Below are positions 10,661 through 59,544 of a stretch of DNA of 64,000 bases, one piece after another; positions within the stretch are counted from its first letter, which is position 1; each line of letters opens with the position of its first letter. The DNA comes from a virus. A program made the translations under genes and the position numbers. The notes beneath the pieces were generated by a model. The model was given only the letters and a program-made list of their open reading frames with translations. It had not been told where the DNA came from and did not search any database. Location: the UHGV virus genome UHGV-0351052; one strand, written 5' to 3'.

Positions 10661-11319
10661 TGAGTTTACTTAATAATAAAGCGGGAGTTATTTCCCGCTT
10701 AGCAGATTTTCTTGGTTTTAGAACTAAGAAAAATGATATTTCGGTTATGAATAATCAGCCGGTAGGCGCTGTAACAATTTCACAAATAGCAAAAGGTTTT
10801 TATGACCCAAACGTAGAATCTGCTATCAATGATGTTAGAAATATGGCAGAGCAACAGGTTGGAGCTGTATTAGTTAATATAAGTGGCGTATCTCCTACTG
10901 GCGTGCAGCAAACAGACTATTGGTCATTTGAAGGAACTGTTACTGATACTTCAGCCAAACCAGGTGACCCAGTTATTGTTAATATGTTTGGCATTCCTGT
11001 TAAAGCTACTAATGGAATGACTTCAATTGAATTTACTAGTGCTGTTAGAACAGCTCTACAGGAAATGGTTGTAAAATTTATTGCAATTGATTCATTTGAA
11101 GACCATCCTACTATAGGGAATAAAATACAAGTTAAGTATTTAGATAACCAAGAACATATCTTAGAGCAATACTCTGATAAAGGAATTACTTTCAAACAAG
11201 AAATAATTTCTCCTTCTAAACCCGGGTATGGAACTTGGCAATTATTAGGTGCGCAAACTGTTACGCTAGATAGTCATACACAACCTACAGTATTTTATTA
11301 TTTTGAGAGAATAGCATGA
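10660..11319 (+). CDS. 11: Baseplate wedge subunit and tail pin gp11
   Basis: Track ORF starts at 10642 but T4 gp11 begins [20 protein letters not shown] (219 aa), which is the ATG at 10660 overlapping the gp10 stop. Confidence 0.85.
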
Positions 11320-35221: not shown

Positions 35222-35847
35222 TATAGTAACTCAAAGAACTCTTTGAGGCCTCTTATTACATGAGCATGGGTTTTTCCACACTCTGGACATTTAATTGGAA
35301 CAGCCAAATAAACGGTAGGTTTTAAAAGCATATCTTTTATAGCTACAATATCTGACTCTGTGATGATAGAATATAAATCTTCTAGTTCCTTTTCATTTAA
35401 GTCTTCAACTGGAATGCTTTCCCCGTTAGCATGAATCGTTTCTATGCATGATACTATCATGTGGGCTATATTTTTATCATCAAAAATTTTAGGGTATCGG
35501 AATTTAATTTTAATGTCACCCAGTGTATACCAGAGGTCTTCTGGTGCATCTATTTGTGTATGTAATAGATTTATATGGGTTGGTATTTCAGTTCCACAGG
35601 TGCACTTCCAGGAGTTTTCGTGATTAACTTCGCCGAGAGAATGTGCCCATAAATGAATCAGCAGTAGTTCTGATTCTTGGCGGTTTAAATCTTTTGCATT
35701 TGTGCAGTCTTTGATTAGCTTTTTAACAATTACTTCTACAGAACCATTATTTTTGGCAGTAATAAGTTCTAGATATTCTTTAAGCGTGAATGCGCGACAA
35801 TTGATTATTTTAGAACCAACTCTCACATCAAATTTGTATTCATACAT
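35221..35847 (-). CDS. 26: Baseplate hub subunit gp26
   Basis: 208 aa; overlaps gp25 start; order as in T4. Confidence 0.85.
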
Positions 35848-42137: not shown

Positions 42138-42140
42138 CAA

Positions 42141-42171
42141 TGGGGACCGAAAGGTCCCCATATTTTTATTT
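42141..42171. terminator. Terminator hairpin after gp54 (TGGGGACC-GAAA-GGTCCCCA + T-rich tail)
   Basis: Perfect 8-bp stem with GNRA loop then TATTTTTATTT; marks end of the plus-strand late block. Confidence 0.8.
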
Positions 42172-42456
42172 GCGGAATGAAATGAAAGCAGAAACTGAAG
42201 CAACTAAACTATCTTCAATATAAACTTCAATTTTTACCGGAGCTTCTGACTCAAATTTACCTGTTACTACACCCTGAAAAATACTTTCAGTCTGTTCTGG
42301 CTTTGAAAAATTTTCAGAAGGAAAAATTCCAAACTTTTTATCTGTTCCGAAAATTTTGATAAATTCATCATAAACTGCTTCATTAAAAGCATTATCAGCA
42401 GGAATAACGCCTTCAACTACAAGTTCTTGACCTAAAAAGCGTAAAGAAGATTTCAT
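42166..42456 (-). CDS. Hypothetical protein (first gene of minus-strand block, downstream of promoter-like repeat)
   Basis: 96-aa ORF; GAGGA Shine-Dalgarno 8 nt upstream of ATG within the 54-bp repeat. Confidence 0.6.
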   Translation of the reverse strand: MKSSLRFLGQELVVEGVIPADNAFNEAVYDEFIKIFGTDKKFGIFPSENFSKPEQTESIFQGVVTGKFESEAPVKIEVYIEDSLVASVSAFISFRK

Positions 42457-42463
42457 TTTGTGT

Positions 42464-42517
42464 TCCTCATGTTATGTCAGTAAGACTACTATAACACAAC
42501 ACGAGGGACTTGTAAAC
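42464..42517 (-). promoter_or_regulatory. 54-bp element, copy 1: early-promoter-like (GTTTAC -35, TATAGT -10) plus leader with SD; identical to copy at 57900-57953
   Basis: Minus strand reads GTTTACAAGTCCCTCGTGTTGTGTTATAGTAGTCTTACTGACATAACATGAGGA. Confidence 0.6.
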
Positions 42518-44574
42518 TACATTTTGAACTTTTTAGACATTCCATTGATGTTAACCAAAGAAGCTAAGATTTGAGAAACTTCATTTTCCTCTTCTTTTGA
42601 TTCTTCTACAAGGAATTGATTAAATCCAGCCATTGGACGAACTTCACCAGTTTCCATTAGATGGTCGCCATCATATACTGATTCTTCTAATTGTTCAGAA
42701 GGAGGAACGATTGTACCTTCGATTAGATACTTGTTATAAGCAGTTTCTTTCATAAAGTACGTACTTACTTTATTAATCTTCAGTAAAATTCCACGCGGTA
42801 GAATAACTTCAGCTTCTGATGGAAATCCTGATAAATGACCTGGAACGATAACTTTGATTCGCTCAGCTCCTTTAATTACCATACCCACGCTAGTTTCAGC
42901 ATCTTCATTAGCATATGTAGAATGACTACCCATATGCATCAAATCTTCTGCATCAACAGAACCTTCTCCTTCGCCAGAAAATACTGCACCGGAATCATCT
43001 AGAGCCATATAGTTTTTACCATGCTCACCGAAGATATTTGGTTTAAGCGATGTGGATACGAAGTTCTTGAAATAGAACATTTTGTTTTCAATGTTATGAC
43101 GCAAAGTTTTAAAGGTAACTTCTTGTCCACGATAAAGCGTAGTTCCTGGAGGAAGAACTGAACCTTTAGCGAATGCAGAATCCAACGTCTCGATGTGCTT
43201 AATGGCACGTTCCATATATTCTTCACGGGTAGAATCTGGTTTACCCAAGAGGAACGAGTTCATTTCAACATATGAATCTGCACAATAATCTTCAATTACA
43301 TCAGACTCAGCCTGAGTCAGTCCTTTTGGAGTTACTTCGGTGCTTGCGTATTCATATGCCTGAGCAGCAGATTCATTAATCAATTTATAAATGCCATTCA
43401 TGACAAATTGAATAATAGCTACCTTTTCGTCTGGTGTGGCTTTAGAACCTTTAACTAAATCATTGATAATTTTCTTAATAACATCAAAGCTATTAGAAAT
43501 ATTAATGTCAGCGAGATCGCTTAAAATTTTATCGGTTTTATAATCAAAGAATTCTTTATTCTTTAAATATTCTTGAGAACCTTGATGTGTTATATCGCTC
43601 TGCAGCCTGATAGACGGATCACGTAAACGCGCATGGGCCAATGCAATATGATTTCGGAAGCTTTCTAGTTCATAATCGTTAGATTTAAAACGAGAGGCAC
43701 TTCTCATACCACCGATAGCTCCTTTGCCGAAGTTTGAACCAATCTGGATAACGCCAGAATTCATTGGTCCTTCTGCTTTATATACCGGAACTTTAGATTC
43801 AAACTCTTGATATTTCTTGGCAGCGAAGCTATCACCCTGAAGTGAAGCATCGACAGTAGAATATTGAGCTTGTGCTGCTAATCGACGACTAATTTTAGTT
43901 TTCTGAATAACCGCTTGGTCAGTACGTTTATCATTTTCTAAAGCAATAGAAGCAGCAACAGCGACAGCTTTAGGAACAGCATTACCTGTTTTAACGTCTA
44001 CATAAACATCACCGACCTTCGATTCAACTTTTGTGAATAACTCAGTTGAAATAGGAGGTACACCTGGAATGTCTTCTAAATTGGCATTTTTACGGTAAAC
44101 CATAATATATGCATACTTTTTATCATAGTCCCAGATTTCCTTTAAAAGAACATAACGACCTGCTCCTTTAGTACGTACTAAACGGTCAGCAATAACTTGC
44201 ATTTGACGAGCAGCTCCATTTGTTTTACTTTTTAGTACGCGGAATAAGCATGCGTCAATTTTATACTGTTTCATTGTTTGAAGAGCAGTATCAAAAACCG
44301 CATTAATGACACCAATTGGATTTCCACCCAAGTTTTTAAGTTTAACTAATGATAGTTTCTCATTAACACCTATCATTACGATATGCATCATTTTATCGCC
44401 TGGCTTAACGTTTTTATTTGTATCACCGCCAGAGGTGTATGTACAAAATCTAAATCCAGGAAGCACGCTTTCTTCACCGGCTTGAATAGCAAAAATTTGA
44501 GGTATTTTATGCTTAGGATTTAAGTTAACAACCGGCGCCGAAGCGCCGTCAAATAATTCTGTAATAAGTTCCAT
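42517..44574 (-). CDS. Alt-like ADP-ribosyltransferase, paralog A (downstream copy)
   Basis: 685 aa; C-terminal region has R (TTLYRGQ), S-T-S (FVSTSL) and E-x-E (SEAEVILPRG) motifs of R-S-E class ADP-ribosyltransferases; N-terminus homologous to paralog B. Confidence 0.85.
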   Translation of the reverse strand: MELITELFDGASAPVVNLNPKHKIPQIFAIQAGEESVLPGFRFCTYTSGGDTNKNVKPGDKMMHIVMIGVNEKLSLVKLKNLGGNPIGVINAVFDTALQTMKQYKIDACLFRVLKSKTNGAARQMQVIADRLVRTKGAGRYVLLKEIWDYDKKYAYIMVYRKNANLEDIPGVPPISTELFTKVESKVGDVYVDVKTGNAVPKAVAVAASIALENDKRTDQAVIQKTKISRRLAAQAQYSTVDASLQGDSFAAKKYQEFESKVPVYKAEGPMNSGVIQIGSNFGKGAIGGMRSASRFKSNDYELESFRNHIALAHARLRDPSIRLQSDITHQGSQEYLKNKEFFDYKTDKILSDLADINISNSFDVIKKIINDLVKGSKATPDEKVAIIQFVMNGIYKLINESAAQAYEYASTEVTPKGLTQAESDVIEDYCADSYVEMNSFLLGKPDSTREEYMERAIKHIETLDSAFAKGSVLPPGTTLYRGQEVTFKTLRHNIENKMFYFKNFVSTSLKPNIFGEHGKNYMALDDSGAVFSGEGEGSVDAEDLMHMGSHSTYANEDAETSVGMVIKGAERIKVIVPGHLSGFPSEAEVILPRGILLKINKVSTYFMKETAYNKYLIEGTIVPPSEQLEESVYDGDHLMETGEVRPMAGFNQFLVEESKEEENEVSQILASLVNINGMSKKFKM

Positions 44575-46655: not shown

Positions 46656-46663
46656 TATTTATA
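46656..46663 (-). promoter_or_regulatory. Late promoter box TATAAATA (minus strand) upstream of Alt paralog B
   Basis: Complement of 46656-46663 reads TATAAATA about 20 nt upstream of the ATG. Confidence 0.6.
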
Positions 46664-46685
46664 AAATTAAAGGCCCGAAGGCCTT
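46661..46685 (-). terminator. Terminator hairpin downstream of the gene 30 unit (minus strand)
   Basis: AAGGCC-UUCG-GGCCUU followed by T-rich tract on minus strand. Confidence 0.6.
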
Positions 46686-46873
46686 TAGTAATCTAGTGGT
46701 AAGAGAGTACGATATATTTCAAACTTTGGACCTTTTTCATAGGCATCAAATGTTTCTGTGAATTTATTATAAGCATATGCATCTACAAATTCGAGAATGA
46801 CTTGTGATACAGAAGTAGAAACATCTCCACCTTCTTTTTGAGCAATGACAATTGTTTCTAAGTAAGCTTTCAT
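46685..46873 (-). CDS. Small hypothetical protein translationally coupled to DNA ligase gene
   Basis: 62-aa ORF; ATG overlaps gp30 stop (ATGA). Confidence 0.55.
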   Translation of the reverse strand: MKAYLETIVIAQKEGGDVSTSVSQVILEFVDAYAYNKFTETFDAYEKGPKFEIYRTLLPLDY

Positions 46874-51381: not shown

Positions 51382-51460
51382 TTTATTCTCCTTTGTTTGT
51401 GTAAGATAATACTATCACAAAGGAACCATACTGTAAACAACTTTGTGCAATCTTTGGAAA

Positions 51461-54918: not shown

Positions 54919-54980
54919 TTCAATTTCCTCACTTGTTTTGGTAGAGCTATAATATCACAACTCTACCGTAAAGTAAACTA

Positions 54981-57048: not shown

Positions 57049-57398
57049 TTAGAAAGGTCCTGGATGTCTTCTGCGAACTTGTTGAAGGAGTTGTTGATTT
57101 GTTTTTCAACCAATCCTGGCTTATGAGCCACCACATCCGCCTTCTTTGCATCTTTGCGCAGTTTTTCATTTTCACGCTCAATAGCAGCAATTGCCTCACG
57201 ATTTTTATTATTCATCGCATCAATATAATTATACTGAATTCGCAAATTATTTAATGCTAAAGCGTTTTCATTGGCTGTTTTTGTAATTTCAGTAACTGAT
57301 GTTTCTAGTCTTTCTACCTTATTTTTTAAAATAATAGATGTTCCGCCAAATGCTATTACAAGTAATAGCAATCCAGCTGTAAAATTACTTACATGCAT
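57045..57398 (-). CDS. Inner-membrane spanin-like protein (i-spanin candidate)
   Basis: 117 aa; N-terminal TM segment FTAGLLLLVIAFGGTSIIL followed by helical charged periplasmic region. Confidence 0.65.
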   Translation of the reverse strand: MHVSNFTAGLLLLVIAFGGTSIILKNKVERLETSVTEITKTANENALALNNLRIQYNYIDAMNNKNREAIAAIERENEKLRKDAKKADVVAHKPGLVEKQINNSFNKFAEDIQDLSK

Positions 57399-57895
57399 AA
57401 AGTTTTAATAACCTCTATAATATCGTCTTGAGAAAGACCGTTAATTAAAATATGATGTTCAGCTGGAGATTTAGAAATTTTAAAGCATGCCTCAACATCT
57501 TCTGCCATATCCGATGCACTACGATTTGGATTACTAATACCAAGGCGGTGTTTTCCCGTCAAAGGATTAACGATGATATAGCATTTGCAGCTATTGATAT
57601 GAACATTAGGTTGAGTCTGATTAATGAACACTTCACAATCATACTTAGCGAGTTGATTTTCTAAAAAGACTTTCATCTCTTCAACCGCATCAGGAAGCAT
57701 ATCACGGGCTTTCTCAAGACGACGATTTCGATATTCTTTAATGGTCGTTTTCCGCTTGACTTGCTTAGCTAAATCTTTCTTAAGATCGGTGATATATCCA
57801 ACTCGACGATTTCCTTTGAATACAGAAATCCCATCTGTAGTATCACCGTATGCTTCAACGACCATTTCAGTAGTAATAAGTTGTAAATCCATCAT
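57389..57895 (-). CDS. alc: Alc, inhibitor of host transcription on cytosine-containing DNA
   Basis: 168-aa track ORF (start may be second Met, 167 aa); begins MMDLQLITTEMVVEAYGDTTDGISVFKG; position upstream of pseT cluster as in T4. Confidence 0.8.
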   Translation of the reverse strand: MMDLQLITTEMVVEAYGDTTDGISVFKGNRRVGYITDLKKDLAKQVKRKTTIKEYRNRRLEKARDMLPDAVEEMKVFLENQLAKYDCEVFINQTQPNVHINSCKCYIIVNPLTGKHRLGISNPNRSASDMAEDVEACFKISKSPAEHHILINGLSQDDIIEVIKTLCM

Positions 57896-57899
57896 AAAG

Positions 57900-57953
57900 T
57901 CCTCATGTTATGTCAGTAAGACTACTATAACACAACACGAGGGACTTGTAAAC
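57900..57953 (-). promoter_or_regulatory. 54-bp element, copy 2: early-promoter-like plus leader, identical to 42464-42517; upstream of alc
   Basis: Exact 54-bp identity with copy 1. Confidence 0.6.
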
Positions 57954-57956
57954 AGC

Positions 57957-59544
<1,588 letters not shown>

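Follow-up and report, generated by a model that had tools for sequence, protein, structure and literature searches.

Why would a phage carry the same 54 nucleotides (nt), without a single difference, in front of two genes that lie 15.4 kb apart? The question is raised by the UHGV virus genome UHGV-0351052, of which a stretch of 64,000 nt (hereafter, the window) was analysed. The window belongs to a Tequatrovirus (T4-like phage) and is 97-98% identical to T4, T6, RB3 and PST. On its minus strand, GTTTACAAGTCCCTCGTGTTGTGTTATAGTAGTCTTACTGACATAACATGAGGA is present at both 42464-42517 and 57900-57953, with 54 of the 54 positions identical, and a repeat finder returned the two copies as a direct repeat (same orientation, 100% identity, 15,436 nt apart). 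The original prediction, made from the sequence alone, had reported exactly such a pair, each member before a minus-strand gene, and had called for a search for further copies; both copies are where it placed them, and no third copy was found in the 64-kb window at up to 3 mismatches. None of 100 shuffles of the window yielded even one match to the 54-mer, which rules out a chance origin of the repeat. The identity begins and ends abruptly: the flanking bases are ..tgta versus ..agct directly before the first G of the element, and acac versus cttt directly after the final GAGGA.

The 54-nt repeat is one T4-type early promoter and ribosome-binding cassette that is present at two genes, alc and alt.-3. 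In kind, this is an ordinary T4 early promoter cassette, and the pair is genus-wide and already present in T4. The main interest lies in a hairpin that links the promoter spacer to the Shine-Dalgarno (SD) sequence at alc, and in the way that the cassette has repeatedly been moved between alc and alt.-3. The whole explanation, in which an early cassette, a translational gate and a history of copying between the two sites are combined, is one that we favour with some reservation.

The promoter is the firmest part of this explanation. In both copies, a promoter scan found TTTACA, a 17-nt spacer and TATAGT with a TGn extended -10, for 10 of 12 consensus matches, which gives the element the layout TTTACA-17-TGnTATAGT, short leader, GAGGA. 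On the minus strand, the -35 hexamer occupies 42511..42516 in copy 1 (positions 2-7 of the element) and 57947..57952 in copy 2, and the -10 hexamer, preceded by TGn, occupies 42488..42493 (positions 25-30) and 57924..57929, respectively. From this geometry, transcription is predicted to start at position 37, an A located 7 nt past the -10, that is, at 42481 in copy 1 and at 57917 in copy 2 (about 123057 and 136300, respectively, on the minus strand of T4, NC_000866). The early sigma-70-type promoter and ribosome-binding region that the original prediction had placed before the two minus-strand genes is thus confirmed. Its reading of the promoter as GTTTAC-18 nt-TATAGT is literally right, although in the sigma-70 register the boxes are TTTACA, 17 nt and TATAGT with the TG of an extended -10. 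Among 24 genomes from which both copies were extracted, mostly from GenBank records, the -35 hexamer is invariant; the -35, TGTGTTA and the SD region are all invariant or nearly so, and the -10 has the natural variants TACAGT and TATAAT. Host sigma-70 RNA polymerase would recognise TTTACA, 17 nt and TGn-TATAGT and start at about position 37, producing, for alc and for alt.-3 alike, an mRNA whose leader, about 13 nt long and unstructured, is followed by GAGGA, 7 nt and AUG. As read from the sequence, this layer is near certain. A RegB site was considered as well and rejected because the SD, GAGGA, lacks GGAG.

A shared promoter consensus does not account for the identity of the two copies. There are five GTTTAC-type early promoters on the minus strand of the window; the alc/alt.-3 pair is identical at 54 of 54 positions, the next best pair at 35 of 54, and pairs of this element with other early promoters of the window have 26-30 of 54 positions in common. 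A generic consensus is accordingly rejected as the cause. The claim that the 54-bp identity goes beyond what a promoter consensus requires stands, and the motif that could have undone it, one common to all early promoters at similar identity, was looked for and is not what these promoters display. The element shares with the early promoter class of T4 (Pe; Hinton 2010, PMC2988021) the -35 GTTTAC(A), the 17-nt spacing, the TGn extended -10, a -10 of the form TAnnnT and the position directly before an early gene; T4 itself has both sites, with 54/54 and 53/54 identity. It differs from typical Pe promoters, which have only the consensus blocks in common (26-35/54 here), in that the members of this pair agree at every base, spacer and leader included. 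A canonical A/T-rich UP element (-40 to -60) is arguable at copy 1, with AAAAAGTTCAAAATGTA at about -53 to -37. It seems to be missing at copy 2, where an A/T-rich run is found farther upstream, at about -56 to -75. The flanks of the two copies are unrelated.

Both copies fit tightly between genes. Copy 1 (42464..42517, minus strand), with its promoter, leader and SD, fills the gap between the stop codon of an alt paralog (685 aa; 42517..44574, minus strand) and the start of alt.-3: its first base is the last base of that stop codon, and it ends 7 nt before the alt.-3 ATG. The gene that it serves (42166..42456, minus strand) encodes a 96-aa homologue that is 99-100% identical to Alt.-3 of T4 and T6. 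Copy 2 (57900..57953, minus strand) lies between rnlA (RNA ligase 1; 57957..59117, minus strand) and alc (inhibitor of host transcription; 57389..57892, minus strand, from the T4 annotation). Its first base lies 3 nt past the stop of rnlA (57957), and 7 nt separate its end from the second of the alc ATGs. At the alc start, there are two adjacent ATGs (window 57890-57895), and phages UFV10 and HY01 read CTTTATAATG, with the first ATG lost, so that the second ATG (57892) is the likely alc start. With this start, the SD-7 nt-ATG spacing equals that of alt.-3.

What, then, could hold the spacer and the leader, in addition to the promoter boxes? The RNA of the whole element is predicted to fold into a hairpin that spans positions 12-53, around the -10, with an extra apical stem in which positions 28-31 pair with 36-39; the predicted transcription start at position 37 begins its 3' half. 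In copy 1, the minimum free energy and centroid folds agree on a 5' arm at 42493..42506 (positions 12-25, CCUCGUGUUGUGUU), which lies in the promoter spacer and contains the anti-SD CCUC, and a 3' arm at 42465..42478 (positions 40-53, GACAUAACAUGAGG), which contains the SD GAGG. In copy 2, the RNA fold places the arms at 57929..57942 and 57901..57914, the latter again including the SD. The folding energy (dG) is -23 kcal/mol for the alt.-3 copy (z-score -4.1) and -24.4 kcal/mol for the alc copy (z -3.5). The RNA that starts at position 37 shows no structure beyond that of shuffled sequences (dG about -2 kcal/mol, z about -0.4). Because the 5' arm (12-25) lies upstream of the -10 (25-30), it is excluded from any transcript of the element's own promoter, whatever the exact start. 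With 100 or 300 nt of upstream context, as in read-through RNA, the SD has an unpaired probability of 0.00, as against 0.57-0.70 in the own transcript of alc, and the cost of opening the SD-to-AUG region is 12.5-15.8 kcal/mol in read-through RNA versus 4.1-4.2 kcal/mol in the own transcript. A search of Rfam 15 at the gathering score gave no match to an RNA family anywhere in the window.

These folds suggest that the cassette could gate its own gene. In RNA entering from upstream, the spacer, with its anti-SD CCUC, would pair with positions 40-53, with their SD GAGG, and bury the ribosome-binding site; such RNA would come from the late alt/alt-paralog transcript in the case of alt.-3 and from rnlA-region transcripts in the case of alc. 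RNA from the own promoter, which lacks the 5' arm, would have an open ribosome site, and synthesis of Alc and Alt.-3 would be confined, in essence, to the time when their own early promoters are active. Such a gate would also account for the constraint on spacer and leader beyond the promoter consensus. From the modelled RNA structures, we lean, if only slightly, towards the view that the 54 nt also encode such a translational gate. The 'shared regulatory RNA leader' of the original prediction survives in spirit, though not in detail, in that a spacer-SD structure is predicted in RNA coming from upstream; the leader that begins at the own start is short and unstructured.

The gate presupposes that upstream transcripts reach the cassette, and the layout of terminators and promoters is consistent with such read-through into both copies. 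A late promoter, TATAAATA, lies at 46656..46663 (minus strand) just upstream of alt, with a terminator hairpin (46668-46687) before it, and is the likely source of late read-through RNA into copy 1; the scan reported no minus-strand terminator-like site between this promoter and copy 1, including the interval between the alt-paralog gene and the copy. Alt is a virion protein that is made late, and accordingly, late RNA would be expected to run into alt.-3 with its ribosome site buried. Upstream of copy 2, where transcripts of rnlA would enter, no minus-strand terminator-like site was reported from 57954 to about 61370 (~3.4 kb). The classic layout of a stem-loop followed by a promoter, with a terminator upstream of either copy, is rejected. 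The transcription unit ends after alt.-3, where the terminator scan found a bidirectional hairpin with a 9-bp stem on both strands (42140..42161).

The hairpin itself could be read differently, as a transcriptional attenuator or terminator that insulates alc and alt.-3 from upstream transcription with no translational action. Such a function has been proposed for the stem-loops of promoter-early stem-loop (PeSL) cassettes, which are regulatory units of T4-type phages (Arbiol et al. 2010, PMC2839356; Comeau et al. 2014, PMC4122927, the latter treating the PST/T4 pair); these stem-loops mostly lie in the stretch separating the -35 from the -10 or overlap the -10, and one of them cut lacZ expression like a strong terminator (PMC2839356). 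In the GenBank record of SA20RB (OL960581), the alt.-3 copy (35792-35841) is labelled a 'rho-independent terminator' (WebGeSTer), which fits this reading as do the hairpins of other early cassettes of the window that end before the SD. However, the hairpin is not followed by a U-tract in either copy, the next bases being ACACAAAAUG or CUUUAUGAUG (A-rich spacer and AUG), and the terminator scan reported no terminator-like site at either copy on the minus strand. In most genera, moreover, the SD itself forms the 3' arm at alc, and a different SD is accompanied by a correspondingly altered spacer, which a terminator would not need. We consider a purely transcriptional role improbable; the terminator and translational roles are not mutually exclusive. 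The SA20RB record likewise shows several other early promoters that overlap annotated 'terminators'.

Comparison across genera supports the pairing of the spacer with the SD at alc. From 42 loci in IMG/VR, 33 distinct alc cassettes were collected. In 22 of the 33, all 4 SD nucleotides pair with the promoter spacer, mostly at z -3.3 to -6.3. The arms of these hairpins differ widely in sequence, and complementarity is retained. In a separate comparison, the alc cassettes of Dhakavirus, Karamvirus and Gelderlandvirus gave the same fold with other arms, UCUCCUCAU/AUGAGGAGA, UCUCCAUUUG/CAAAUGGAGA and AUCUCCGUUUAGUU/AACUAAACGGAGAU, respectively, at z -3.7 to -5.3. An SD of the form GAGGA, GGAGA, GAGAGG or GGGGA is matched by a spacer with TCCTC, TCTCC, CCTCTC or (T/C)CCC(C), respectively. 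RNAalifold on a MAFFT alignment of the 33 cassettes returned no structure, the 3' arms being misaligned, and an alignment-free duplex test was used in its place, with fixed windows (the 15 nt that follow GTTTAC, paired with the stretch from position 37 to the ATG) in 30 cassettes. The spacer forms a duplex with its own leader at a mean of -14.2 kcal/mol versus -7.8 kcal/mol with other leaders; the own leader ranked 1-3 of 30 in 24 of the 30 cassettes, and none of 20,000 permutations reached the observed mean. Within Tequatrovirus, 97.8% of the hairpin cells remain paired. Of the frequent variants, 11T lies in the bulge, 27C in the internal loop and 32A, 33A and 34T in the apical loop; the variants 15T, 16A, 40A and 42T give G.U or A-U pairs, and one genome carries a compensatory change from C15-G50 to U15-A50. 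What the spacer keeps as its partner is the SD, and the hairpin has no U-tract after it; on these grounds, we argue for a translational role at the RNA level.

Three other minus-strand early cassettes of the window (-35 boxes at 54977, 51437 and 51045) also have hairpins that span the -10, at z -4.4, -1.9 and -3.6, respectively. In the cassette at 51437, the spacer UUCCUUUG pairs with its SD CAAAGGAG; the hairpins of the other two end before the SD, so that the alc type is a special case within a general architecture. In Shigella phage SP18 (16772-17522 of the locus), the annotation splits alc into two open reading frames (ORFs), alca and alcb, the latter an N-terminal fragment; both have a ..ATGAGGA ribosome site of their own in front, and the promoter before alcb has GTGTAC and no SD-pairing hairpin.

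Several observations weigh against the gate. About one-quarter of the alc cassettes (those of Mosigvirus, Gaprivervirus and a few others) have no SD pairing, from which it follows that the gate is dispensable. In the own transcript of alt.-3, the SD is partly paired with the first codons (unpaired probability 0.19, opening cost 3.7 kcal/mol). Within the genus, variant 29A, present in 8 copies, disrupts one apical pair, and covariation is not significant on its own (81 of 500 shuffles), the diversity being too shallow. Across genera, the sense and antisense strands of the 22 cassettes fold about equally well (-19.9 versus -20.7 kcal/mol), a comparison that leaves action on RNA and action on DNA unseparated. 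The hairpin between the promoter spacer and the SD is well supported comparatively at alc, and its functional role is suggested by thermodynamics and covariation only.

The symmetry of the strands bears on another explanation, under which the inverted repeat acts on DNA, as a cruciform or promoter architecture, as an operator for a common regulator or as a preferred recombination site. Most stems outside Tequatrovirus are purely Watson-Crick, with both strands folding equally well, and recombination between PeSL cassettes, with crossovers between the -10 and the SD/ATG, has been shown by inverse polymerase chain reaction in RB49 and phi1 (PMC2839356). Only Tequatrovirus favours the sense strand, which is more stable by 6-9 kcal/mol and contains 3 G.U pairs, and this preference speaks against a DNA-level function. 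Furthermore, what the genera have in common is not the sequences of the arms but their complementarity and the presence of the SD in them, a pattern that makes a site for a sequence-specific protein less likely. A preferred recombination site also sits poorly with direct repeats 15.4 kb apart around essential genes, where recombination would give no viable deletion and no inversion, and about 500 genomes keep both copies. We therefore regard a DNA-level function as highly improbable and return to the translational gate and to the way in which two sites came to carry it.

The pair of cassettes is not peculiar to this phage. BLAST with the 54-mer gave 999 places in a total of 500 phage records. 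This amounts to two for each genome, and all of the records are Tequatrovirus-like. In T4, the alc copy is identical to that of the window and the alt.-3 copy matches at 53 of 54 positions, with the change G40A. Within each of the 24 genomes, the two copies differ by 0-5 nt, and they are identical in 6 of the 24. At alc (9/24) as well as at alt.-3 (7/24), no haplotype is commoner than that of the window, which is probably ancestral; this explains the 54/54 identity in this phage. Six derived variants (16A, 27C, 29A, 32A, 33A and 34T) are common to both sites, as are two haplotypes of two single-nucleotide polymorphisms (SNPs) each, 29A+32A and 32A+34T; phages PP01 and UFV10 have 29A+32A at both sites despite flank divergence of about 5%. 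Copies within a genome differ by a mean of 2.04 nt versus 2.33 nt between genomes (permutation p = 0.03). The shared derived variants and the two 2-SNP haplotypes in the 24 genomes, along with transfers between the sites in other genera, lend support to gene conversion, one of the causes that the original prediction had proposed.

The alternative is shared ancestry with purifying selection only, that is, one old duplication before the radiation of Tequatrovirus, followed by independent divergence, with the ancestral sequence kept twice in this phage. Given the frequencies of the commonest haplotype at the two sites, chance alone would give about 2.6 of 24 genomes with the ancestral sequence at both, and 4 were observed; the divergence of the element resembles that of its flanks, and the gap between the within-genome and between-genome differences is small. 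Against this explanation stand the six derived variants and the two 2-SNP haplotypes found at both sites, with 29A+32A in PP01 and UFV10 on 5%-different flanks, and the exchanges that Mosigvirus and contig 2706795356 show, independently, between these sites. Shared ancestry itself requires one initial copying event between the sites. We consider it unlikely as the full account and turn to the exchanges.

The promoter positions are old because GTTTAC-type promoters are present at the same positions of both sites in Mosigvirus, Gaprivervirus, Dhakavirus and Karamvirus. At alt.-3, each of 5 Tequatrovirus loci has the SD-pairing hairpin (z -4.4 to -6.6). None of the 14 loci from other genera has it (z -1.4 to +0.5); there, alt.-3 has a different, 'alt.-3-type' spacer (AAGCACAAGGAAGTG-like). 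It follows that the hairpin cassette is apparently native to alc and was copied into alt.-3 in the Tequatrovirus lineage. In Mosigvirus, the exchange appears to have run the opposite way, with the alt.-3 type placed at alc: the alc promoter has no hairpin (z +0.8), its first 30 nt are 82-83% identical to the alt.-3 type versus 68-69% to the alc type, and the alc and alt.-3 promoters are the most similar pair in the region (78% versus at most 67% for others). The Dhakavirus-like contig 2706795356 appears to show an exchange in that direction as well: the 3' half of its alc cassette has an exact stretch of 32 nt in common with its alt.-3 cassette (474-505), from just past the -10 into the start codon; in its relative 2974741249, only 10 nt are common to the two cassettes. 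Altogether, at least three independent exchanges of whole or half cassettes between the same two sites are well supported by these sequence comparisons. The possibility that the promoters are paired in every genus was rejected, given that in Dhakavirus and Karamvirus the alc/alt.-3 pair is generally no more alike than other promoter pairs; the exchange is therefore episodic. In IME08, two cassettes 443 nt apart (at positions 11089 and 10646 of the locus) have nearly the whole leader and ribosome-binding site in common (TACCAAATAATAC.AAAAACAAACTGGAGAATAAAATGAA).

Thus, in the ancestor of Tequatrovirus, the alc hairpin cassette would have taken the place of the promoter resident at alt.-3, through ectopic recombination or gene conversion, and occasional later exchange would have left a shared pool of variants at both sites. 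We find this history probable. Some of the data temper this scenario. From genome to genome, the element diverges by 3.8-6%, about as much as its flanks do (1.5-5% per kb), and hence the element is not unusually conserved and no recent conversion is needed for this phage. Support for occasional exchange within the genus is only moderate, and the variable positions common to the two sites could partly mirror which positions are free to vary. In sequence, the Tequatrovirus element is only modestly closer to the alc-type family (72%) than to the other (64%), such that the direction of the putative transfer rests mainly on the architecture of the hairpin.

The pattern is that of ectopic gene conversion, or concerted evolution of dispersed paralogs, in three respects: polymorphism is shared between paralogous sites, paralogs within a lineage are closer (91-100% in Tequatrovirus, 78% in Mosigvirus) than orthologs across genera (65-71%), and there are mosaic tracts with internal breakpoints, such as the 32-nt tract. 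It departs from that model in the unit, which is a regulatory cassette rather than a gene and, at only ~54 nt, is near the minimal length for efficient homologous recombination, and in that the exchange here looks episodic, not continuous, with copies up to 5 nt apart in many genomes. A recombination hotspot able to delete or invert the intervening region, as had also been envisaged, finds no support. The repeats are direct and so cannot invert the DNA between them, and the 15.4 kb between the copies contains the genes for DNA ligase (30) and gp31 as well as cd and pseT. In T4, genes 30 and 31 are essential, and a deletion between the copies would remove both. No indel or deletion of the intervening DNA was seen; with 999 copies in 500 records, the approximately 500 genomes keep both.

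The neighbourhood of alt.-3 has its own peculiarities. Between 42517 and 46632 (minus strand), the window contains two full-length alt genes in tandem (repeat families D1, D3 and D7; 71-80% identity, 2055-2091 nt spacing). In T4, the second copy is reduced to the fragments alt.-1 and alt.-2, and the internal deletion in this copy joins ..LRVLKS to KKFKM*, so that exactly the last codons abutting the promoter copy are retained. Upstream of the tandem pair, at 46656-46687 (minus strand), the compact terminator hairpin TAAAGGCCTTCGGGCCTTTA directly precedes the late promoter, which is followed by the alt start codon. The late promoter motif occurs 21 times in the window versus 9 expected, mostly on the plus strand of the structural-gene half, which is the ordinary T4 late-promoter pattern. 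Alt.-3 is a non-essential protein, and mutants with C-terminal extensions escape the CmdTAC defence system (PMC11618068).

Two known arrangements resemble the one described here. The anatomy of the PeSL cassettes is the same: a stop codon, a strong sigma-70-like promoter with which a stem-loop overlaps, an SD and a start codon. PeSL copies that resemble one another lie at several loci and recombine, as the cassettes and half-cassettes seem to have been exchanged between the two sites here. The -10, TATAGT, is one base off the PST/T4 PeSL consensus, TTTACW-N17-TAYWAT (PMC4122927). Both PMC2839356 and PMC4122927 read the stem-loops as terminators or attenuators and gave 0 matches for translation or gene conversion, whereas here the 3' arm is the SD itself, with no U-tract after it. 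PeSL exchange was shown between neighbouring cassettes that flank dispensable ORFans, with mini-circles and indels as the outcome. In the present case, 13-15 kb of DNA with essential genes separate the partners, and nothing but the cassette is exchanged.

The other arrangement is that of T4 e (lysozyme), soc, 49 and I-TevI, which have occluded ribosome-binding sites with an internal promoter (reviewed in PMC3014915). In these genes, the SD and/or the AUG is held in a helix in long upstream transcripts, as predicted in silico here; a promoter in or at the 5' strand of the helix yields a shorter, translated RNA without the 5' arm; and the arrangement is retained in relatives with compensating changes, as in the 22 of 33 alc cassettes. 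However, their internal promoter is late (gp55, of the same motif as the late promoter upstream of alt), and their translation is delayed to late times, whereas at alc and alt.-3 the promoter is an early sigma-70 one whose spacer forms the 5' arm, and translation would be limited to the immediate-early period. No late promoter motif was found in or beside the element, and thus the logic would be the same with the timing inverted. The effect has been demonstrated experimentally for e and I-TevI and is predicted for alc and alt.-3. Neither alc nor alt.-3 is among the examples in that review (PMC3014915); the older T4 literature may already note the pair or the alc hairpin.

A broader proposal, which we put forward tentatively, as possible rather than probable, is that T4-type early cassettes can be dual-coded self-gating modules, in which the spacer serves as the anti-SD arm and the gene stays silent in middle and late read-through RNA, and that such a unit can be transplanted by ectopic gene conversion, retiming a gene in one step. 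If so, alt.-3 would have been retimed in Tequatrovirus and alc un-gated in Mosigvirus; the arrangement would be the early-gene mirror image of the late-gene mechanism of e and I-TevI, and the stem-loops embedded in the promoters of T4-type phages would gain a translational role, a functional reading that is not considered in the PeSL papers. Labels of the kind given to such hairpins in GenBank records, where they appear as 'terminators', would call for caution in annotation. In evolutionary terms, the exchanges indicate that very short regulatory cassettes, and not only genes, move between distant loci. Finally, if the gate works, it would explain how a dense genome that lacks terminators between genes stops the later synthesis of an immediate-early protein from read-through RNA: Alc, a terminator of host transcription, is such a protein, and the same would hold for Alt.-3.

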